The position numbers were made by a program, and so were the translations under genes. A stretch of DNA of 64,000 bases from a bacterium (GTDB lineage Bacteria > Patescibacteriota > Minisyncoccia > JAUYLV01), in contig JAUSGO010000028.1 in assembly GCA_030649025.1 (NCBI GenBank), forward strand, positions 1,074-65,073. The letters are read 5' to 3'. Every line of letters begins with the position of its first letter. The first letter of the stretch is position 1. Below, in pieces: positions 3,194 through 56,318 of the stretch. The notes beneath the pieces were generated by a model. The model made no database searches and was not told where the DNA came from. It was given only the letters and a program-made list of their open reading frames with translations.

Positions 3194-5050
3194 TTACACG
3201 CCTGTGTTGCCGAAAAATTTATTTGCAAGTTCCGGCGAGATGAAAAGCTCTTCAATGCGCGACGGCATGATGCGTGCGCCAAGCGTGATAAGCAGAAGCC
3301 CTGTTGCAGCAAGTGCTATCATGAACGAGAGATAGATGCGGTCGAACATGAGGAAGCCCGCCTGCGGAAGTTGCGTATCGGCTGCACCAAGCACCTGGCC
3401 TTCAGTAGAAGCGCCCGCAACGGTCGGCGTAGGCGTGGGAGCTGGCGTCGGGGTTGCGGTTGGTCCGCCGCCGCCTCCGTTGGTTACCGTAACATTTGCT
3501 TGCGCAAGAATGGCCGAGCTATAGAAGGAGCTGGTCACCTGGGCGTTTATGGGATAGGTCCCCGATGAGACGCCGCTGCCCACATTCATGTTGAAGTTGA
3601 ATGATTGCGAAGCGCTCGGAGCAAGAGAAGATATTGTGGGGAAGGTTTGGGAGCCGGAGCTGTCGGCCATTGCCATACGCACGAATGGCAGGACAAACGT
3701 CTTTGCGGTGCCGCCCTCCGGGAAGCTGAAGCCCGCAGGAAGCGTAACCGTAATTATCACGTTGCTGTCAGAAAGGTTTCCGGTATTGTTCACGGTCACC
3801 GTACCCTGGGACTGTCCTCCGGCATTCACCGTTGAAGGATTTGCCGAAAGCGAGAGATTGAGAATGACCGCACTACCGCCTCCTCCACCGCCGCCACAAT
3901 TCGACTGACAACCGGGAGTAGGCGTGGGTGTAGGTTCGGGGGTTGGGGTTGGCTCTGGAGTGGGTTCCGGAGTAGGTTCTGGGGTTGGCTCAGGCGTAGG
4001 AAGAGTATTTACTGAAATATCAACACCGTCGTTGTCGTTGCTGTTATTATTATCAAATTCTGTTGCATCTGCCGAAGCGGTATTGGTTATGGCTTGGCCA
4101 CCAGTTCCGCTGTTGACCGTAACGGTGATGGTTAGAGTTGCAAACACGGTGCTTGCCAGAGAACCCACCGTCCATATACCAGTAGCGCCGTTGTAGCTTC
4201 CCTGGCTGGCGCTTGAAGAAACGTACGTCACGCCGGTTGGCAAAATGTCGGTGACCACAACATTGGTGGAGTTGTCCGGACCACTGTTGGTGACTGTAAC
4301 GGTATACGTTATAGTTTGGCCCTCATCTGGCGTTGCGTCGTCAACCGTTTTGTCGGTTGCAAGATCCGAGATCGACTCATAACATTTGAGATAATCTTGG
4401 TTGTAATTGTTTGAATTTGCCGAGGTTGCGAAGAATTTTGCGGTGTTCAGTGAAATTCCTGACCCCGTAAGCTGGGCTTTGGGAATTGCCCAATCAACAA
4501 AGTATAGACCTCCACCCGCCGAAGTTGCCTGTGCGTGTGTTGAGGCCACATCGCTCCAAAGCAGAGTATCCGCCGGATCATTGAATATCGATGGGCTAAA
4601 GTCTACGGCAGTTACCGCGGGGCTATTCTGCCATATTTCAACCTTGTCATCCTTGCCGTTAAGAGCAAGGAGGTATTGGTAGGCGGGTAAAGTGGTTTGC
4701 ATCAAAACAACCCAGGAATGATTTTTCCAACCGCCTCCATTATCGATAGGATTGCCATTATCGATAGGATTGCCATTAACTCTCTCTCGGAAGTAAAAAT
4801 AACTTGCGTCTTCAGCAAAACCGACCGCAGGATTGCTGGTATCACCAATTAAATCTCTGTGGTCGGTTGGGGGCTCCGCAAGGTCAGTTGAACATTGCGC
4901 CGGCGACGTCCAAGATGTCGGCCAAATTGGAGCCGCTTGGGCCGCCAACGGCACCGACTGAAACACCATAGACATGGTGAAAACCGCCGTGTAGAACGCT
5001 ACGAACGGGCGGATAATCCTGGCCCTCTTTTTTGTCGTGAAATAGTACAT
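3194..5050 (-). CDS. cell-surface protein: signal peptide, DUF11-type conserved repeat domain, PEPT tandem linker, poly-Gly run, C-terminal LPQAG + hydrophobic segment (candidate sortase substrate)
   Basis: 618-aa ORF; TITYTVTVTNSGPDNSTNVVVTDILPTGVTYV (DUF11-like); (PEPT)n; GGGGGGG; C-terminus QLPQAGFLMF...hydrophobic...R. Confidence 0.7.
   Translation of the reverse strand: MYYFTTKKRARIIRPFVAFYTAVFTMSMVFQSVPLAAQAAPIWPTSWTSPAQCSTDLAEPPTDHRDLIGDTSNPAVGFAEDASYFYFRERVNGNPIDNGNPIDNGGGWKNHSWVVLMQTTLPAYQYLLALNGKDDKVEIWQNSPAVTAVDFSPSIFNDPADTLLWSDVASTHAQATSAGGGLYFVDWAIPKAQLTGSGISLNTAKFFATSANSNNYNQDYLKCYESISDLATDKTVDDATPDEGQTITYTVTVTNSGPDNSTNVVVTDILPTGVTYVSSSASQGSYNGATGIWTVGSLASTVFATLTITVTVNSGTGGQAITNTASADATEFDNNNSNDNDGVDISVNTLPTPEPTPEPTPEPTPEPTPTPEPTPTPTPGCQSNCGGGGGGGSAVILNLSLSANPSTVNAGGQSQGTVTVNNTGNLSDSNVIITVTLPAGFSFPEGGTAKTFVLPFVRMAMADSSGSQTFPTISSLAPSASQSFNFNMNVGSGVSSGTYPINAQVTSSFYSSAILAQANVTVTNGGGGGPTATPTPAPTPTPTVAGASTEGQVLGAADTQLPQAGFLMFDRIYLSFMIALAATGLLLITLGARIMPSRIEELFISPELANKFFGNTGV
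3903..4012. repeat. tandem 12-nt repeats encoding [10 protein letters not shown] linker
   Basis: Visible ggttc(t/c)gg(g/a)gt(t/a)gg periodicity; translation (minus) [24 protein letters not shown]. Confidence 0.7.
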
Positions 5051-21220: not shown

Positions 21221-21330
21221 TGGCGGAGGAGGGAGGATTCGAACCTCTTGTTCCTGGGTAGCCAATTATTTTCGAGAAACAAGGAAGCTACCCGCAATAT
21301 GCTTCACTGAAGCATATTGCCCCCTTGCGA
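21221..21330 (-). other. orphan tRNA 3' portion (T-arm GAGG-TTCGAAT-CCTCC, acceptor 3' strand, encoded CCA) fused to structured element copy A; tRNA-Ser-like paralog remnant
   Basis: Reverse complement reads ...GGGTAGC[24-nt loop]GCTACCCAGGAACAAGAGGTTCGAATCCTCCCTCCTCCGCCA; no complementary 5' acceptor strand (GGAGGAG) within 150 nt; the 7-bp stem GGGTAGC/GCTACCC echoes the variable-arm stem AGGGTA/TACCCT of the neighbouring tRNA-Ser. Confidence 0.5.
21253..21330 (-). repeat. tRNA-associated two-hairpin structured element, copy A
   Basis: 12-bp perfect hairpin GCAATATGCTTC-AGT-GAAGCATATTGC plus 7-bp stem GGGTAGC/GCTACCC closing 24-nt loop containing GTTTCTCGAAAATAA; ends CCAGG. Confidence 0.6.
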
Positions 21331-21398
21331 GGACTCTGGTTTTTTCCCGATTTGTCCAAATTTGAAAAAATTTGGCAACAAATCGCAATCCCGTCTCA

Positions 21399-21489
21399 TG
21401 GCGGAGGGGGTGGGATTCGAACCCACGAGGGTATTGCTACCCTGACGGTTTTCAAGACCGTTGCCTTCGACCACTCAGCCACCCCTCCG
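21399..21489 (-). tRNA. tRNA-Ser(UGA), type II with long variable arm, CCA encoded
   Basis: GGAGGGG-TG-GCT-GAGTGGTCGAA-GGC-A-ACGGT-CTTGAAA-ACCGT-[CAGGGTAGCAATACCCTC]-GTGGG-TTCGAAT-CCCAC-CCCCTCC-G-CCA. Confidence 0.85.
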
Positions 21490-21520
21490 CCATAGTACGG
21501 GACAAGACTGACTCGCTCTT

Positions 21521-21600
21521 CCTGGGCAGCCAATCATCTTTAAGAAACAAGGAAACTTGCCCGCAAAATCTGAAGACATTCAGATTTTGCCCACTCCTCC
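21521..21600 (-). repeat. tRNA-associated two-hairpin structured element, copy A' (immediately 5' of tRNA-Ser)
   Basis: 12-bp hairpin GCAAAATCTGAA-TGTC-TTCAGATTTTGC (different sequence, perfect pairing = covariation vs copy A) plus stem GGGCA/TGCCC closing loop with GTTTCTTAAAGATGATT. Confidence 0.6.
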
Positions 21601-37820: not shown

Positions 37821-37891
37821 GCGGGCGTAGTATAGTGGTAGTACGTGACCTTCCCAAGGTCAAAGTGTGGGTTCGATTCCCATCGCCCGCT
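37821..37891 (+). tRNA. tRNA-Gly(CCC), CCA not encoded
   Basis: GCGGGCG-TA-GTAT-AGTGGTA-GTAC-G-TGACC-TTCCCAA-GGTCA-AAGT-GTGGG-TTCGATT-CCCAT-CGCCCGC-T. Confidence 0.85.
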
Positions 37892-37912
37892 CATGCGAGG
37901 TTAGTGGAGTGG

Positions 37913-38032
37913 GCTGAATGCTCCAGTGGAGCATTCAGCGGGAGACTGCGGTGTTTCGGAAAAATAAAAGTCTCCCAGGAAGTACGATTGCTTCCCAAGC
38001 AATAAGCACGAGTCCGATTCTCGTATCCCGCT
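37913..38032 (+). other. chimeric tRNA-Gly(CCC)-like paralog: structured element copy D replaces the 5' third; anticodon arm, T-arm and acceptor 3' strand retained with compensatory substitutions
   Basis: GGCTGAATGCTCC-AGTG-GAGCATTCAGC / GGGAGAC[23-nt loop with GTTTCGGAAAAATAA]GTCTCCC / AGGAA / GTAC-G-ATTGC-TTCCCAA-GCAAT-AAGC-ACGAG-TCCGATT-CTCGT-ATCCCGC-T; stems differ from true tRNA-Gly but remain paired. Confidence 0.5.
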
Positions 38033-44132: not shown

Positions 44133-44573
44133 TTAAAGGATGAAAAAAACTAAAAGCAAAAAGCTTGTAAAAATAAGTTCCTGTATCGAAAAATACTTTA
44201 TTATGGGCTTCCGCAGATTAATTTTGTTGATTGGAAAAAGTGGAAAAAGATCTGCATTATTGAGAGCATCTAAAACTAAATGGGCTAGATACGCAAAGCC
44301 AAATATTAAACCAATCCCTTTATCTAATATGAGAACTAGTATGGAAATAGCCGCCCATGAGAATACGTTGTGTAAAAAACGATGGTCACCCCTGGGATCG
44401 CGTCGCTCCATCATGGCAACTGCCAGTTTTTTGGGTTTGAATAAAATTCCATGTTTGAAATATGATATTACATGGTCCAAATCAATTGCCATTGAACCAA
44501 TTAGTGAAGCTGGATAATTACCCGTTAGCTTACCTATAATTAGACCCGCAATGAAGTGTGTTGGTAATAGCAT
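44133..44573 (-). CDS. DUF457/YdjM-like membrane-bound metal-dependent hydrolase family protein (AT-rich gene)
   Basis: MLLPTHFIAGLIIGKL...AIDLDHV...LHNVFSWAA pattern of YdjM family; GC clearly lower than neighbours. Confidence 0.55.
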   Translation of the reverse strand: MLLPTHFIAGLIIGKLTGNYPASLIGSMAIDLDHVISYFKHGILFKPKKLAVAMMERRDPRGDHRFLHNVFSWAAISILVLILDKGIGLIFGFAYLAHLVLDALNNADLFPLFPINKINLRKPIIKYFSIQELIFTSFLLLVFFIL

Positions 44574-44753
44574 ACGTGTTAATTATCTCAAAAATAAAAT
44601 GATTAAAAAATTTTCTTCCCCCAAATCGGGAAACCGTGAATTCGTTTTTACCCCCAAAATTGAATACAAATTAGTCGCCAAGCAAGGCGAACCTTTCAAA
44701 CTTACAATTTCCTTTTTGGTGCCGCGGGAGAGAGTCGAACTCTCATGAGGTTA

Positions 44754-44831
44754 TCCTGGGCGGATTATTATTTTTCAGAAACATCGTAGCCGCCCGCGAC
44801 ATCTGAAATCGTTCAGATGTCGCCCCTCGCA
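44754..44831 (-). repeat. tRNA-associated two-hairpin structured element, copy B
   Basis: 12-bp hairpin GCGACATCTGAA-CGAT-TTCAGATGTCGC; stem GGGCGG/CCGCCC closing 26-nt loop with GTTTCTGAAAAATAATAAT. Confidence 0.6.
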
Positions 44832-44862
44832 GCATTTTGAGTGCTGTGCGTCTGCCATTTTC

Positions 44863-44929
44863 TCCTGGGCGACCGACCATTTTCAAGAAGCATTGTAGTC
44901 GCCCGCGAAATGGTCTCCCAGACCATTTC
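44863..44929 (-). repeat. tRNA-associated two-hairpin structured element, copy C
   Basis: 10-bp hairpin GAAATGGTCT-GGG-AGACCATTTC; stem GGGCGAC/GTCGCCC closing 24-nt loop with GCTTCTTGAAAATGG. Confidence 0.55.
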
Positions 44930-44950
44930 TCCCACCTTGGCGCACCCAAT

Positions 44951-45031
44951 GTGCCCGGGAGAGGAGTCGAACCTCCATGCCTTGCGGCACACGATTTTGA
45001 GTCGTGCGTGTCTGCCATTCCACCACCCGGG
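44951..45031 (-). tRNA. tRNA-Leu(CAA), type II, CCA not encoded
   Basis: GCCCGGG-TG-GTG-GAATGGCAGA-CAC-G-CACGA-CTCAAAA-TCGTG-[TGCCGCAAGGCAT]-GGAGG-TTCGACT-CCTCT-CCCGGGC-A. Confidence 0.8.
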
Positions 45032-45111
45032 CGCTCAAACAGATACGTTTATTCTACTGAATTTTTTCGTATTGTCAAAGCGTGGTTTTCTTGTTACACT
45101 GGGTGAGTCGT

Positions 45112-51308: not shown

Positions 51309-53387
51309 ATGAAAAACGAAATCCCGAACGACATTAACGGACTTTTGGAACATGACCGAAGCGAACAGGGAAAGAAGGTCTTTCGCGGAACTTGCCGCGA
51401 ATACCTGGATATTGTGCGGGCTAATCCTGGGATCGTGCGACTTGCCCACGCTACCGTCTACGATCACGTTATCATGGCGGCCGGCGTAACCACCGTCGAC
51501 GTTGAAAAGGACCCGCGCCTGCGTCGGCTTTACAGCGCGGAAACCTTGCGGGAACTTAATTTTTTCAAAGATAAATTTTTCGGAATTCGCGATACGGTGG
51601 ATGCTATCGGACGCTACTTCCAGGGAGCCAAAAATCGTGGCGAGGAGTCTCGACAGATCCTCTACTTCGTGGGGCCCGTCGGATCTGGAAAAACTTCTTT
51701 GGTTGAAGAATTAAAGAAGGGTATGGAGAGTGCGCCGCCCGTCTATGCCGTCAAGGATTGTCCGCAGCAAGACGCCCCGCTCCTTCTTATCCCCAAGCAC
51801 CTGAGAAAAAAGATGGAGGGGCTGCTCGGCGTGAGAATTGAGGGAGATATTTGTCCCGTCTGCCGCTATCGCCTCACCGAAACCGACAAGATCGAACGGC
51901 TAACCAAGGATTGTTTCGCGAACGAGAAGTGTCTCATCGACAACGACAAGAAAAAAGGAGTCGACTGGCCGGCGTTCTGGAAAATGTATCATCAAGAGTT
52001 CGATTATCGTGACGAGGCGGGGAATGTGCTTTGGGAAAAGTATCCCGTGGAAATGGTTTCCTTCTCCATCCGTGCTCGGCGCGGTATCGCTTCGGTCCCG
52101 CCGACCGACCCGAATAATCAGGATACCAGCGTCATTTTCGGCGATATCGATATTTCCAAGATCGACCGATATCCGGAAGATCATCCGCTGGTATTGCGTC
52201 TGAACGGCGCCTGTAACCGCGGAAACCGTGGCATTGTGGAATTCATCGAGATCTTTAAGAACCCGCCGGAGTTTTTACATCCGGTCATTACCGCTACGCA
52301 GGAGAAGGCCATTCCTTCGCCGGGCAAAACCGCAATGATCTATTTTGACGGCGTTATCATCGCCCACTCCAACGAACCCGACTATAACAAGTTCATTTCC
52401 GACAATTCCAACGTCGCCATCCAAAATCGCGTCTACCCCATCCGCGTTCCTTATGCGATCGAAATTTCCGAGGAGACCGCGATATACGAGAAGTATCTGA
52501 AAAGCACCGATTTCAAAGGAAGCGTCGCGCCACACACTCTGGAGGTCGCGGCGATGTTTTCGGTGCTGACGCGTTTGAAGCCGTCGCAGAAGTGCGATCT
52601 CTTGACAAAGTTGTATCTGTATGACGGCCGCGCAGTCATCGAGAAGGGACAGGCCAAGCGCATTGATATTTCGGAATTGAAAGAGGAAGCAACGAACGAG
52701 GGCATGTCTGGCATTTCCACGCGCACCATCTTCAAAGCCATCGATTATGCCATCTCCATGAGCGATCATGATTGCATCAATCCGCTTACTATCCGCGAGG
52801 CTATCATGGAAATGCTCAAAAAAGAGCACCTTGCCGATGATATGCGTATGCGATACGTGGAAGAAATTCTGCGCGGGATCGTACACAAGGAATATCTGAA
52901 GATCCTGGAAAAAGAAATCACTCGCGCCTACGTGCATGCATACGAGGATCGTGCCGAAACATTCTTCCAGAATTACTGGGATAACGTAGCGGCCTGGTGC
53001 CTTCACAAAAAGGTCAAGGACCGCGCTACCAAGGAAGAGCGCGATCCGGATATCGCCAGCATGTCGGCAGTCGAGGGGCAGCTTGGCCTTTCCGGAGGAG
53101 CTACCGAAGGATTCCGGCACGATTTCATTGCCTACGCGCAGGAAGTACTTCGCGGAGGAGGAAAGCTTTCATACAAGAGCTATGAGCCGCTTAAGGAAGC
53201 CATTGAGGGCGTGCTTACCGCATCTCTCCGCAAGGAAGCCCGTATTATTACCGGGGCAACCGCGCGCGACGATGAACAGGGTAAGCGGTACGACGCCATG
53301 ATCGAACGTATGCGAACAATCGGATACCATCCGCACTGCTCGGAAGTGATTCTCCGATATGCGTACAATAACGTCTGGAAAGACTAA
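51309..53387 (+). CDS. prkA: PrkA-family serine protein kinase (YeaG-like, AAA+ N-domain)
   Basis: ILYFVGPVGSGKTSLVEELKKGME...YAVKDCP...ICPVCRYRL typical of PrkA/YeaG. Confidence 0.8.
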   Translation: MKNEIPNDINGLLEHDRSEQGKKVFRGTCREYLDIVRANPGIVRLAHATVYDHVIMAAGVTTVDVEKDPRLRRLYSAETLRELNFFKDKFFGIRDTVDAIGRYFQGAKNRGEESRQILYFVGPVGSGKTSLVEELKKGMESAPPVYAVKDCPQQDAPLLLIPKHLRKKMEGLLGVRIEGDICPVCRYRLTETDKIERLTKDCFANEKCLIDNDKKKGVDWPAFWKMYHQEFDYRDEAGNVLWEKYPVEMVSFSIRARRGIASVPPTDPNNQDTSVIFGDIDISKIDRYPEDHPLVLRLNGACNRGNRGIVEFIEIFKNPPEFLHPVITATQEKAIPSPGKTAMIYFDGVIIAHSNEPDYNKFISDNSNVAIQNRVYPIRVPYAIEISEETAIYEKYLKSTDFKGSVAPHTLEVAAMFSVLTRLKPSQKCDLLTKLYLYDGRAVIEKGQAKRIDISELKEEATNEGMSGISTRTIFKAIDYAISMSDHDCINPLTIREAIMEMLKKEHLADDMRMRYVEEILRGIVHKEYLKILEKEITRAYVHAYEDRAETFFQNYWDNVAAWCLHKKVKDRATKEERDPDIASMSAVEGQLGLSGGATEGFRHDFIAYAQEVLRGGGKLSYKSYEPLKEAIEGVLTASLRKEARIITGATARDDEQGKRYDAMIERMRTIGYHPHCSEVILRYAYNNVWKD

Positions 53388-53592
53388 TCTTTCCTGAAGT
53401 TCGGAGCCAAGACCGCTTGGCTCTTTTTTATTTCCAAGCGATCGGGCAGCGCATAATAATCTCCGTTTTGACGTCTAGAGAGCGCAGGAGCCCGAGAGCT
53501 TAATTTCCTTTATTTTTCCGTCCGCCGTTGACGGCGGGCAGGAAATCCCCTACCCTTAATAGGATATTGTTCATTGCCAATTTAAGACAAGT

Positions 53593-54816
53593 TTGACAGG
53601 AGGCCATATGGCTATATTCCGAGATTCTTCCAGAGAAAGCGACCGGGGCGCAGAAGACCGCGCCAGGCACCGAGAGCTCGTACGAGAATCGGTTCAGGAA
53701 AACATCGGGGATATCATCGGGGAAGAAGATATCATCGGCGTATCCGGAAATAAGAAAATCAGAGTTCCCATCCGTGGTATCAAGGAGTACCGTTTCGTTT
53801 ACGGAGAAAACGGTGGGGGCGTTGGCGAGGGCAAAGAAGGCATGGAGCCCGGTGACACCTTCTCTAAGCAAGGAGGGAAGGGCCGTATGCCGGGACCCGG
53901 CGGAGACGATCCCGGCGAGGAAATATATGAGACCGAGATCTTTCTCGACGAGCTTCTTGATATTGCCTTCGAGGACCTCATGTTGCCGGAAGAAGCGAAA
54001 AAGAGGCTTCGGGAGATCGAAGTAGAACAGCATGCCAAACGCTATGGCTACCGAAAGGCCGGACCCCCGCCGCGCCGATCAAAAAAGCGCACAGCGAGAG
54101 AACGGCTGAAGCGCAAGAAGGCAACCGAACGCGCAACGCTGGAACGGGCAGAAGACCAAGCCTTGTCTCCCGCCACACCCCTGGACGGCCAGGAAGAACA
54201 TTTTCCCTTCCACAATCAGGACCTTCGGTATCACTACGTAAAGAAAACGAAGCGCCGTGAATCGAACGCCGTGGTGTTTTGCGTCATGGATGTTTCCGGT
54301 TCCATGGATATTACCAAAAAATATCTTGCGCGCATGTTCTACTTCCTGCTCTATCGATTCCTAAAAACGAAATACGCGCGAGTAGAAGTGGTGTTCATCG
54401 TACACCACACCGTGGCCCGGGAAGCCACCGAACAGGAATTCTTCCACCACGTGGAATCCGGCGGCACCCATATTTCCAGCGGCGCCATAAAGGCGCTTGA
54501 GATCGTCGATGAGCGCTTTGACCCCACGGTATGGAATATTCACTACTTCCACTGCTCCGATGGCGAAAATTTCGAGCATGATAACCCGGCAGCGATCAAA
54601 GCGTTTCGCCAGCTGACCGATATTGCCAATCTCGTTGGCTATGGAGAGATCAAGCCGGAAACGGGATTTGACTGGGGAAGCATCACGCCAATCCTTGAAA
54701 AAGAAATTCGCGCGGATAACTTTGCCGTAGTAAAAATCCGAGATCGGAAAGATCTCTGGAAGGCATTCAAAGAACTTCTCTCCAAGGAGCAGCTGGATCG
54801 GAGGAAAACATCATGA
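53593..54816 (+). CDS. YeaH/DUF444 (UPF0229) family protein with vWA-like domain
   Basis: N-terminal R..L...V.ENIGDIIGEEDIIG...KIRVPIRGIKEYRFVYGENGGGVGEG; vWA-like MDVSGSM; conserved partner of PrkA. Confidence 0.75.
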   Translation: MTGGHMAIFRDSSRESDRGAEDRARHRELVRESVQENIGDIIGEEDIIGVSGNKKIRVPIRGIKEYRFVYGENGGGVGEGKEGMEPGDTFSKQGGKGRMPGPGGDDPGEEIYETEIFLDELLDIAFEDLMLPEEAKKRLREIEVEQHAKRYGYRKAGPPPRRSKKRTARERLKRKKATERATLERAEDQALSPATPLDGQEEHFPFHNQDLRYHYVKKTKRRESNAVVFCVMDVSGSMDITKKYLARMFYFLLYRFLKTKYARVEVVFIVHHTVAREATEQEFFHHVESGGTHISSGAIKALEIVDERFDPTVWNIHYFHCSDGENFEHDNPAAIKAFRQLTDIANLVGYGEIKPETGFDWGSITPILEKEIRADNFAVVKIRDRKDLWKAFKELLSKEQLDRRKTS

Positions 54817-56318
54817 CCGACTGGACCATAAAAGACTTGGAACGTTATGAAGAGGCCATTTCCAAGATCGCCAAAGAAGAGGGGCTGAACTGCTTTGAAC
54901 AGGAGTACGAGATATGCGACCATGCGGAGATGATCGGCTATATGGCCTACAACGGTATGCCCGCCCACTACCCGCACTGGTCTTTTGGGAAATCATTCGA
55001 GCGCAGTGAGACTCTGTACCGCTACGGCGTGCAGGGCCTGCCCTACGAGATGGTGATCAACGCCGACCCATCTCTTGCCTACCTCATGCGCTCCAATTCT
55101 CTTGCATTGCACATTGTGACCATAGCGCATGCGGGATGTGGTCATAATGATTTCTTCAAGAATAATCGATGCTTCAGGCACACCCGACCCGAGTATACGA
55201 TGCAGCGCTTCAAGACACATGCGGACCGGGTGCGCGAATACACCAAAGACCCAAGCATCGGACGCCGACGCGTAGAGCAGGTGCTGACCGCGGCGCACGC
55301 CTTATCGCTGCATCGGAGGCGAAACATTGAAGCGCCGCGCCTGAATCAAGCCGAACAGCGCAAACGACTATTTGAATCTGCTCAGCCGCGAAAAGACGAG
55401 TGGACCGACATCCACTCTCGGCCCGACTATAAGACCCCGGATCTATCACGTGTCCCGCTTGAGCCGGAGGAGGACATCCTGCTTTTTATCAGGGACTTTA
55501 ATCCGTCCCTTGAATCTTGGGAAAAAGACTTGCTTACTATCGTTGCCGAGGAATCCGATTACTTCTGGCCGCAGATAGAAACCAAGATCATGAACGAAGG
55601 GTGGGCAACCTACTGGCACTATAAGATTCTGAACAGCCTGAAACTTCCTCCAGAATTGCACCTGGAATTCCTTAAACTGCACAATCAGGTTATCGCGCCG
55701 CACATCGGCTCAATCAATCCCTATCGTCTGGGATTTGAGCTTTTCAAGGATATTTACCGGCGGTGGGAGAATCCCACGCCGGAAGAGAAGGAGAAATATG
55801 GTCTGTCCGGCGGCGAGGGAAAATCGAAAATATTTTCCGTGCGCGCAGCCGAGCGCGATATTTCCTTTCTGCATCAGTATCTGACGGAGGAGTTCCTACG
55901 CCGCTTCTTTTTCGTCGAGTACGCCGAAGATGAAGAAGAAATTATGATCACCGACACGGTGGATGAGCATAACTGGCAAGATTTTCGCGGCCAGATCGTG
56001 CAAAACACTGGATCAAACTCCATTCCCGATATTCGGGTATACGACAGTAACTTCAAAAACGCCCAAACGCTACTTGCCCTGCACTGCTTTGACGGGCGCG
56101 AGCTCCACCCCGAATACGCCGCCCATACGCTGCGTCACTTTCAGACGCTTTGGCGCAGGCGGGTACATCTTTTAACCTGGAATCTCCGGGAAAAAGCATG
56201 CTGGCTCTACACCACGGATCCGTCCGATAAGATAACCCAGCATAAACATTGCGAATCTCCCGATTGCCCATTGCGAAAATGGCTGAAAGAGCGTGGGCAG
56301 GAGCACTTGATATTGTAG
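54813..56318 (+). CDS. SpoVR family protein (YcgB-like)
   Basis: AHYPHWSFGKSFERSETLYRYG...YEMVINADP...HAGCGHNDFFKNN; 4-nt overlap with upstream gene. Confidence 0.8.
   Translation: MTDWTIKDLERYEEAISKIAKEEGLNCFEQEYEICDHAEMIGYMAYNGMPAHYPHWSFGKSFERSETLYRYGVQGLPYEMVINADPSLAYLMRSNSLALHIVTIAHAGCGHNDFFKNNRCFRHTRPEYTMQRFKTHADRVREYTKDPSIGRRRVEQVLTAAHALSLHRRRNIEAPRLNQAEQRKRLFESAQPRKDEWTDIHSRPDYKTPDLSRVPLEPEEDILLFIRDFNPSLESWEKDLLTIVAEESDYFWPQIETKIMNEGWATYWHYKILNSLKLPPELHLEFLKLHNQVIAPHIGSINPYRLGFELFKDIYRRWENPTPEEKEKYGLSGGEGKSKIFSVRAAERDISFLHQYLTEEFLRRFFFVEYAEDEEEIMITDTVDEHNWQDFRGQIVQNTGSNSIPDIRVYDSNFKNAQTLLALHCFDGRELHPEYAAHTLRHFQTLWRRRVHLLTWNLREKACWLYTTDPSDKITQHKHCESPDCPLRKWLKERGQEHLIL

Follow-up and report, generated by a model that had tools for sequence, protein, structure and literature searches.

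Short structured elements that interrupt a second tRNA-Leu(CAA) gene and other tRNA gene copies in a Parcubacteria-type bacterium

The question raised by the tRNA-Leu(CAA) locus at positions 44616-45078 of a 64,000-nt stretch of contig JAUSGO010000028.1 (the window) is what has broken up the second of its two tRNA genes. Coordinates below are positions in the window unless another contig is named (L followed by a number), and the Leu locus is read on its minus strand. The original prediction, made from the sequence, described a complete tRNA-Leu(CAA) followed by a paralog split by two structured segments, elements B and C, and proposed either a structure-targeting mobile element or an evolved composite RNA. 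We found that the second copy is a full-length gene in three pieces, broken by two copies of a family of elements of about 70 nt, which we named E.

The tRNA-Leu(CAA) transcription unit

Positions 44717-45078 form a single tRNA transcription unit of a Parcubacteria-type bacterium of the candidate phyla radiation (CPR). The unit opens with a sigma-70-like promoter, TTGACA-16-TAGAAT (45051-45078, 11 of 12 matches), lying 18 nt upstream of the intact tRNA-Leu(CAA), and the same promoter-to-tRNA spacing was also present in L008, L009, L010 and L030. The intact gene (44951-45032), with acceptor strands GCCCGGG and CCCGGGC and no encoded CCA, was called by ARAGORN and by Rfam (RF00005, 54.8 bits). 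It is separated by a 9-nt spacer from the second tRNA-Leu(CAA) copy downstream, and two terminator-like hairpins (44616-44690) end the unit. The second copy is co-oriented with the intact gene and very probably co-transcribed with it.

The first piece of the second copy (44932-44941) is GCCAAGG-T-GG, i.e., a 5' acceptor strand followed by U8 and G9-G10. Element C (44863-44931) comes directly after G10; it was recognised by the covariance models and by the strict pattern described below, its hairpins P1 (GAAATGGTC/GACCATTTC) and P2 (GGGCGAC/GTCGCCC) were both present in the minimum free energy fold, and its tail is AGGA. The second piece (44824-44862) reads GAAAATGGCAGACGCA, anticodon arm CAGCA-CTCAAAA-TGCTG and CGAGGG, the last being the 5' half of the variable arm. 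It contains the D-loop AATGGCAGA and the D-stem 3' strand CGC, the part from D-loop through anticodon arm occupying 44830-44862 and the anticodon CAA 44837-44839. Here both the D-loop of the intact gene and the compensated anticodon stem of the prediction (CACGA/TCGTG in the intact tRNA-Leu vs CAGCA/TGCTG in the paralog) could be read. Element B (44753-44823, covariance models) follows in the variable-arm loop, with P1 GACATCTGAA/TTCAGATGTC, P2 GGGCGG/CCGCCC and the tail AGGA(T). The third piece (44717-44752) consists of AACCTCAT, which is the 3' half of the variable arm, the T-arm GAGAG-TTCGACT-CTCTC, the 3' acceptor strand CCGCGGC, A73 and an encoded CCA, and ends at 44717.

Two details of the predicted layout had to be modified. 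B does sit at the variable arm; more exactly, it occupies the loop of a variable-arm stem that has been kept (GAGG...CCTC). Of the two insertion positions proposed, 5' of the paralog and in its variable arm, only the latter held, because the acceptor strand GCCAAGG and TGG were found upstream of C: the second gene is complete, and C is situated within it, after G10.

As encoded, the second copy was not called as a tRNA by ARAGORN or Rfam, which called 44951-45032 only. The original prediction had suggested asking whether the pieces could form a cloverleaf after excision, and when C and B were deleted in silico ARAGORN indeed returned an 87-nt tRNA-Leu(caa) with all four arms of the cloverleaf and the variable arm, the first piece serving as 5' acceptor strand; 28 of 60 combinations of boundaries were accepted. 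The restored acceptor stem forms five of its seven pairs, with mismatches A4.C69 and A5.G68, and there is one mismatch in the D-stem. A perfect partner for the 3' acceptor strand, GCCGCGG, survives in L008.

The E family and the state of the interrupted copies

The prediction that B and C belong to one family with elements at the Ser and Gly loci was borne out. A strict pattern drawn from the five window copies matched five times in the window against 0.00 expected (100 shuffles). Two covariance models were built, R1 from these five copies and R2 from 13. R1 recovered the window copies at 55-90 bits and nothing else in the 64 kb, together with copies in other contigs, while R2 with filters off gave the same five only, the next match in the 64 kb scoring 16.7 bits. 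Element C scored 56.4 bits with R1 and 79.7 bits with R2, element B 90 and 79.3 bits, respectively.

An E copy starts with GC. Its first hairpin, P1, has 10-12 bp closed by GC/GC and is free in sequence with the pairing kept. P2 is a stem GGGNNNN...NNNNCCC around an A/U-rich loop of about 24 nt with the conserved YTNCNNTGTTTC and AAAAT, and the element ends on AGGA. Conserved motifs of the family are GCGGG, TGTTTC, AAAAT and CCCAGGA, and both B and C belong to it. The 13 copies came from eight contigs, five from the window and eight from elsewhere, six of the latter beside tRNA genes of relatives. In their alignment, which was fitted to its own model, 96.2% of the helix cells were standard pairs and 16 of 19 pairs were changed on both sides, values reached by none of 500 shuffles; slid registers gave 33-45% pairing. 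The same P1 and P2 were returned by RNAalifold when the five window copies were aligned independently with MAFFT. The objection that the elements might not be conserved outside this genome is thereby answered, since they are conserved there with covariation.

The pairs in E comprised 222 Watson-Crick, 5 G.U and 4 A.C, with no excess of G.U over A.C. As the pairs are almost purely Watson-Crick, the constraint may be one on RNA or one on single-stranded DNA, and such pairing fits a hairpin at the DNA level better than an ordinary functional RNA. Within one genome the copies are no more than about 65-75% identical, and all of them keep perfect hairpins. There are signs of mosaicism, as P1 of element C resembles one copy from L009 (L009_3) and the 5' half of P2 of element B another (L009_2), and features of P2 are common to the copies of one locus (C and B; A1 and A2 of the Ser locus; the two copies of L008). 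G(G)G precedes 13 of 13 aligned copies as well as a later one from L019, and every copy at a tRNA gene is co-oriented with that tRNA. No Rfam 15 family matched the element at an E-value of 10 or below in 44600-45100, where only tRNA reached threshold, and no description of such an element was found in the literature.

Several further readings of the conserved sequence were tried and rejected. Open reading frames (ORFs) from the ATG of 'AAAATG' give M-x-G-x-P-G in four copies, and the ATG is missing in three window copies; this peptide is a by-product of the conserved RNA/DNA sequence. AGGA as a Shine-Dalgarno sequence with TCCT in P2 as its complement was discarded, TCCT being present in just 4 of 13 copies. 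A third helix within P2 (TGTTT/AAATA or TTCAA/TTGAA) was not kept across copies, and no conserved third helix or pseudoknot was found in E. Long-range pairing between the P2 strands of two elements around an enclosed tRNA works in L008 and fails at the window Ser locus, and the P2 3' strand (GCCCAGG) doubling as a tRNA acceptor 5' strand fits Leu loci only.

All five E copies of the window sit at its three tRNA loci, Leu, Gly and Ser. At the Gly locus, on the plus strand, an intact tRNA-Gly (37821-37892) precedes a second tRNA-Gly(CCC) copy (37895-38032), which holds E (37913-37980, covariance models) in its D-loop after G18-G19. The insertion, AGTGG-[GC...AGGA]-AGTAC, is at the same D-loop position as that in a tRNA-Thr copy of L019. 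At the Ser locus, on the minus strand, the covariance models found two copies. A1 (21520-21590), upstream of tRNA-Ser(TGA), is preceded by GGAGGAG-T-GG (21591-21600), a tRNA-like 5' acceptor strand. A2 (21252-21320), downstream of tRNA-Ser, comes after a variable-arm-like hairpin and is followed by the T-arm AGAGG-TTCGAAT-CCTCC and CTCCTCC-G-CCA (21221-21251), in which CTCCTCC is complementary to the GGAGGAG before A1.

Some further observations were made at these and similar loci. The spacer from tRNA-Ser to A2 (21343-21427, minus strand) contains a long hairpin, GATTTGTTGCCAAATTT/AAATTTGGACAAATC, which scored 16.7 bits to the E model and may be a decayed E. A nested layout is common to 21221-21600 of the window and L008:9610-9935, both on the minus strand: an acceptor strand with E, a complete tRNA, then E with a T-arm and the complementary acceptor strand. 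The outer strands are GGAGGAG/CTCCTCC at the window Ser locus and GCCGCGG/CCGCGAA at the L008 Leu locus, and recombination between E copies and a function are both possible explanations. CCA is encoded in three interrupted or partial copies and not in their intact neighbours (window 44717-44719, L019:20471-20473 and L011:2686-2688). In L011:2553-2700 (plus strand), after tRNA-Tyr(GTA), there is a second T-arm/acceptor copy with a different structured insert of about 62 nt in its T-loop. This partial copy reads GGAGGG-ATTCGAA ... CGAAT-CCCTCC-CTGCCCA-CCA, its CCA being absent from the intact gene, and these genomes may thus hold more than one kind of tRNA-interrupting element. In L019:20120-20260 (plus strand) tRNA debris lies upstream of the tRNA-Thr promoter, namely GCCAGCGTAGCA, a 5' fragment at -143, and GCTCAGTTGGTTGAA, which resembles a D-arm.

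Removal of E from the Gly copy gave a 72-nt tRNA-Gly(ccc) cloverleaf in ARAGORN, with the T-loop TCCGATT, i.e., C at the universally conserved position 55. The L019 Thr copy is without its 5' acceptor strand. Remnants truncated at the 3' end were seen in L010, in the 5' piece of L008, at A1 and in the Thr leader of L011, and remnants truncated at the 5' end at A2 and in the 3' piece of L008. An intact twin adjoins each complete interrupted gene, namely the window Leu and Gly, the L009 Leu and the L019 Thr genes. A Pfam scan of about 50 window ORFs gave no transposase, reverse transcriptase, integrase, splicing endonuclease (EndA) or RNA ligase (RtcB).

Cloverleaves restored on removal speak for a bacterial tRNA intervening sequence, in which case E would be transcribed and then removed, or cut out without religation, and the Leu copy would give a working tRNA. 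E would spread by entering exposed GG loops of folded tRNA at the RNA level, the E-bearing tRNA being copied back to DNA beside its parent gene, and it would be removed from, or tolerated in, the mature tRNA as a counterpart of archaeal non-canonical tRNA introns. We regard this as improbable, and the proposed way of spreading and the archaeal parallel equally so. Insertion at exposed tRNA loops (D-loop position 20 and the variable loop) and the maintenance of the anticodon stem by compensatory change agree with it, as does the occurrence of CCA on three interrupted copies but not on their twins together with several 5'-truncated copies, both typical of retro-copies; moreover, Patescibacteria are already known as intron-rich (PMC13011429). 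However, a well-spliced intron would not need an intact twin beside every complete interrupted gene, and the restored tRNAs are defective, by two acceptor mismatches, by C55 or by a missing 5' strand. The Leu insertion after G10 leaves no proper D-stem, attempts to draw a bulge-helix-bulge motif at the junctions failed, and neither splicing endonuclease, ligase nor reverse transcriptase was among the window ORFs. Encoded CCA as proof of retro-copying was rejected as a weak signal, since about 30% of the intact tRNA genes in these contigs encode CCA too.

Filled and empty sites, and what they say about E

Alleles without B and C had been proposed as the evidence to look for, and an empty B site was found in L009, a related metagenome-assembled genome (GCA_030699565.1). 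The orthologous paralog there reads CGAGGG-C-AACCTCAT, an ordinary variable arm, where the window has CGAGGG-[GCGACATC...CCCAGGAT]-AACCTCAT with an insert of 71 nt. Two more filled/empty pairs came from L019 and L006. In L019, 3 nt separate tRNA-Thr(CGT) from a second copy beginning at position 8, TAGCTCAGTTGG-[GC...AGGA, 66 nt]-AGAGCAGCG...; past E this copy matches the intact gene without a difference for 55 nt, and only T20 of the D-loop is replaced. In L006 a repeat occurs empty as ...AAAGGAGGGGGC-GT-GGGGGAGGTTGTAAC and filled as ...AAAGGAGGGG-[GC...CCCAGGAAC]-GGGGGAGGTTGTAAC. The three pairs agree in that E comes after GG, begins with GC and ends with AGGA(N), without target duplication and with 1-4 nt replaced. 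E is therefore a discrete insertion. The two alternatives of the original prediction, a mobile element or a composite RNA, hold as a pair, while the qualifier 'structure-targeting' was not demonstrated, the sole constant at the insertion point being the preceding GG.

The ParA encoded beside the Leu locus had its best matches in Parcubacteria/Portnoybacteria-like metagenome-assembled genomes, and these relatives could be compared at the same locus. Portnoybacteria-like relatives with 70% ParA identity have the synteny tRNA-Leu(CAA)-parA-parB-relA with a single tRNA and no E. L011/L015 (82%) show the same arrangement, with a plain tRNA-Leu(CAA) upstream of parA and no E, and L016 and L017 have no tRNA at that locus. 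In L010 (87%) the promoter is followed by GCCCGGG-T-GG, E, a decayed D-loop and then a complete tRNA-Leu, and in L008 (77%) the order is GCCGCGG-T-GG, E, complete tRNA-Leu, E, and then ACCTCAT with a T-arm and CCGCGAA. L009 (78%) has an intact tRNA-Leu, GCCAAGG-T-GG, E and then the remainder of a tRNA-Leu(CAA), whose variable arm is normal, the element being preceded by GCCAAGGTGG just as in the first piece of the window paralog; a third E-bearing unit of L009 is cut by the contig end. E is missing from the ancestral locus. As it is present in differing layouts in closer relatives and in none of the more distant ones, the paralog with its elements is a lineage-specific, fluid addition to an old tRNA-Leu-parA locus. 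The Gly locus could not be compared likewise, since tRNA-Gly was not found beside the TraG-like neighbour in L018, L019 and L021.

In the CPR contigs the wider distribution of E was strictly limited to tRNA loci. In about 250 kb of CPR DNA examined, 12 of 12 E copies lay within about 150 nt of a tRNA gene, and none was found in about 200 kb of other DNA of CPR contigs, e.g., in L018 (22 kb, no tRNA). The E family is thus specific to tRNA loci in this clade. There are also tRNAs without E, i.e., Pro in L008, Leu and Tyr in L011, and Gly in L016. Strict-pattern scans of a GTDB genome set and a JGI metagenome set, which miss diverged copies such as those of L009, gave only L005/L006 and L007 as real matches; genome matches in L001 and L002 and metagenome matches in L003 and L004 were rejected as chance, having no hairpins. 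Scans of viral contigs gave zero or chance matches only, and BLAST of the Leu locus against phage records gave no match. The L006 copy (4030-4580, minus strand), outside the CPR contigs, is not at a tRNA; it lies inside a repeated GC-rich low-complexity region, and the copy of the same repeat without E is 450 nt away, so that the filled/empty pair is contained within one contig. In L007 (5751-5880, minus strand), also outside the CPR contigs, E lies between tRNA-Ser(GGA) and the tyrosine-integrase gene of an island with further genes for a PD-(D/E)XK nuclease and a DnaD-like protein. This copy has a 48-nt structured extension of P1, and its AGGA is followed after 6 nt by an in-frame GTG, a possible start codon of the integrase gene.

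The L007 copy brings in the explanation that the tRNA pieces and E are scars left by integrase-mediated integration and excision, E being a conserved arm of the attachment (att) region in a family of integrative elements of which the remainder was deleted. In agreement with this, fragments of tRNA 3' ends downstream of tRNA genes are the classical att signature. An AT-rich gene, as predicted, adjoins the Leu locus: the YdjM/DUF457 membrane-protein gene (44133-44573, minus strand) has a GC content of 0.37-0.39 vs about 0.50 in its surroundings. A ketol-acid reductoisomerase (KARI) gene is present or absent beside the same tRNA in relatives. The reading nevertheless does not fit, because at the Gly, Thr and Leu loci E has contiguous halves of a single tRNA gene on either side and does not abut foreign DNA. 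Moreover, the fragments do not repeat the neighbouring tRNA identically, no integrase was found among the window ORFs, and the L006 copy is not at a tRNA. We consider att scars very improbable as an explanation of the family.

Regarding the neighbourhood itself, the low GC of the YdjM/DUF457 gene is compatible with recent acquisition. The KARI-domain gene (ilvC-type) was seen in L030:8172-9671, directly downstream of the syntenic tRNA-Leu(CAA), and in sister contigs such as L033 and L034, and was absent in L031, L032 and L039, which suggests that genes are gained and lost at the tRNA-Leu locus. Elsewhere, the window carries a trio PrkA - DUF444 (YeaH-like) - SpoVR (51309-56318, plus strand), and its gene set besides this trio is that of a typical reduced CPR genome, with type IV pilus genes, sortases and a ComEC-type competence protein.

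Comparison of the paralogs themselves suggests constraint or recombination. Between window and L009 the paralog anticodon stem differs by two pair-preserving double changes (CAGCA/TGCTG vs CTGGA/TCCAG). The two genomes share all 44 nt that run from the variable arm to the discriminator, and L008 keeps most of these. From CCTCATGAGAG through CCCGCG there is no difference to L009 and a single one, in a T-loop base, to L008. By contrast, the real tRNA-Leu(CAA) genes of the window, L008 and L009 differ widely. The near-identity of the 3' part of the paralog in these three genomes is an argument for a functional composite RNA, in which E would be a host-useful module, e.g., protein-binding or regulatory, shown on or processed from a tRNA-like scaffold. 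The T-arm, acceptor and CCA would recruit RNase P, RNase Z and the CCA enzyme, giving a stable tRNA-like small RNA co-expressed with the real tRNA. We judge this unlikely, although a fair number of observations agree with it. P1 and P2 are kept in each diverged copy, and E is intact while its flanks decay. In trailer-type copies the T-arm and 3' acceptor strand are perfect without exception and CCA is often encoded, and all copies are co-oriented inside tRNA transcription units. At the window Ser and L008 Leu loci alike, complementary outer acceptor strands enclose an intact tRNA in a nested layout. Against this, E is dispensable, with close relatives lacking it at the same locus, its position and the partner tRNA parts differ in every genome, and the identity of the host tRNA varies (Leu, Gly, Ser, Thr). 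Neither G.U enrichment, a conserved third helix or pseudoknot, nor an Rfam match was found.

Our preferred reading, held tentatively and at a little under an even chance, takes E for a non-autonomous insertion element, selfish or near-neutral, that has its niche in redundant copies of tRNA genes. E would land in stretches of tRNA genes that contain GG: in Gly and Thr this is the D-loop after G18-G19, in Leu the point after G9-G10, and in both Leu and Ser the variable-arm region. The insertion would disable that tRNA copy, and the cell would survive thanks to the intact twin in the same transcription unit. Interrupted copies would then decay or recombine, giving truncated 5' and 3' halves and mosaics between E copies. 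The hairpins would stay intact, presumably being needed for propagation by a trans-acting DNA enzyme that recognises hairpins or by a recombination process. The interrupted Leu copy would be co-transcribed with the real tRNA and would probably not be a source of decoding tRNA.

We prefer the insertion element because an intact twin stands beside every complete interrupted gene, which an efficiently removed intron would not need, because the interrupted copies carry defects and decay, because E is dispensable in close relatives, and because its helices are Watson-Crick only. The covarying family with common boundaries, the complete genes underlying the insertions, its lineage-specific gain, mosaicism, restriction to tRNA loci and absence of coding capacity were also counted in its favour.

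Several points weigh against an insertion element. No mobilising enzyme or mechanism was identified when the window ORFs were scanned. Perfect hairpins at 65-75% identity are more easily explained by selection in place, i.e., by function, than by a recent selfish burst. E is intact where the flanking pseudo-tRNA has decayed (A1, L010, L008_1 and L011), and the T-arm and 3' acceptor strand beside E are very well kept, near-identical in the window, L008 and L009. The kept T-arm and acceptor and the compensated anticodon stem hint at a constraint at the RNA level. A GG target motif is too short to account for confinement to tRNA loci, and the free sequence of P1 is unusual for a transposon end recognised by a protein. 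Perfect hairpins in old copies, an E that outlives its flanks and the good preservation of the adjacent T-arm, acceptor and CCA are the reasons why both the composite RNA and the intervening sequence are kept alive beside it.

E among known systems

To our knowledge, bacterial tRNA genes are interrupted only by group I introns, very rarely by group II introns, and almost always in the anticodon loop; we know of no insertions such as E in the D-arm or variable loop of tRNA genes in bacteria. In a clade of CPR bacteria of ultra-small size, E recurs as a small non-coding element of conserved structure whose insertion sites in tRNA copies are the D-arm, the D-loop and the variable loop. If E is selfish DNA, it would be a new type of element with an unusually narrow niche and would explain part of the tRNA-fragment debris beside the tRNA genes of these reduced genomes. 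Removal or use of E at the RNA level would imply that bacteria have a further, new pathway of RNA processing or an RNA scaffolded naturally by a tRNA. The E-interrupted copies go unnoticed by standard tRNA finders. Either way, a covariance model and clear filled/empty alleles are at hand for direct tests of mobility and processing.

Non-canonical tRNA introns with a bulge-helix-bulge motif occur in Archaea and in Cyanidioschyzon merolae, and transposition between tRNA genes has been proposed for them (PMC4033280, PMC3728597, PMC3978253). Like the archaeal introns, E is short and non-coding, lies in the D-loop or variable region, has related copies in different tRNAs and positions, may be present several times in one gene, and leaves a restored cloverleaf on removal. 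Unlike them, it is found in a bacterium, always with an adjacent intact twin and in degenerate copies, and neither endonuclease nor ligase was among the window ORFs. At the junctions of B, inspected by eye and without a dedicated search for the motif, no bulge-helix-bulge (3-4-3) was seen, as GGCG after the variable-arm stem cannot pair with AGGA/CAGG before the 3' junction.

Group I introns in bacterial tRNA genes are frequent in Patescibacteria (PMC13011429). E resembles them in interrupting tRNA genes of the same phylum without a homing endonuclease gene, but they are about 200 nt or longer, with a catalytic core P3-P8, and sit in the anticodon loop, whereas E has about 70 nt and two simple helices. 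No group I intron match (RF00028) was obtained at an E-value of 10 or below in 44600-45100, where the inserts are after G10 and in the variable loop.

The intervening sequences of bacterial 23S and 16S rRNA are excised by RNase III without religation. Similarly to these, E forms hairpins, replaces the loop of a stable RNA gene, is sporadic among copies and strains, and causes no target duplication. The loops replaced are the variable-arm loop in B and the D-loop in the window Gly and L019 Thr copies, with presence or absence among relatives. The differences are that the host of E is a tRNA copy and that E consists of two hairpins with conserved single-stranded motifs.

Small non-autonomous repeats include miniature inverted-repeat transposable elements (MITEs), Rickettsia palindromic elements, repetitive extragenic palindromes (REP/REPIN) and palindrome-associated elements derived from the insertion sequences IS200/IS605. 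E shares with such repeats that it is multi-copy, non-coding, hairpin-forming and sporadically present. A likeness to IS200/IS605 ends is possible, insertion being strand-specific, 3' of a short motif and without target duplication; P1, however, is not conserved in sequence and starts directly at the junction. It also differs from small repeats in being confined to tRNA loci in CPR contigs, in having old and diverged copies, and in that no transposase, the Y1 (HUH) type included, was found in the window. The ends of E, GC... and ...CCCAGGA, are not inverted repeats as in MITEs, the hairpins being internal and mutually unrelated, and none of the three filled/empty pairs had a target-site duplication.

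Islands carried by integrases leave remnants of their attachment sites in tRNA genes. The likeness of E to such remnants consists in the tRNA fragments beside tRNA genes and in the one copy, in L007, next to an integrase gene. In contrast to them, E lies within contiguous tRNA copies, the fragments are diverged with compensatory changes, and there is no island in the window. An identical direct repeat of the att type was not present at the Leu locus, where the paralog pieces differ from the intact gene by compensatory changes.

Since E did not show the defining features of these families in those tests that could be run, we class it among small elements inserted in genes of stable RNAs and give a minority chance to its being categorically new. 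Judged by analogy, its way of working would be most like that of archaeal non-canonical tRNA introns and rRNA intervening sequences, and its genomic behaviour like that of the small non-autonomous repeats.

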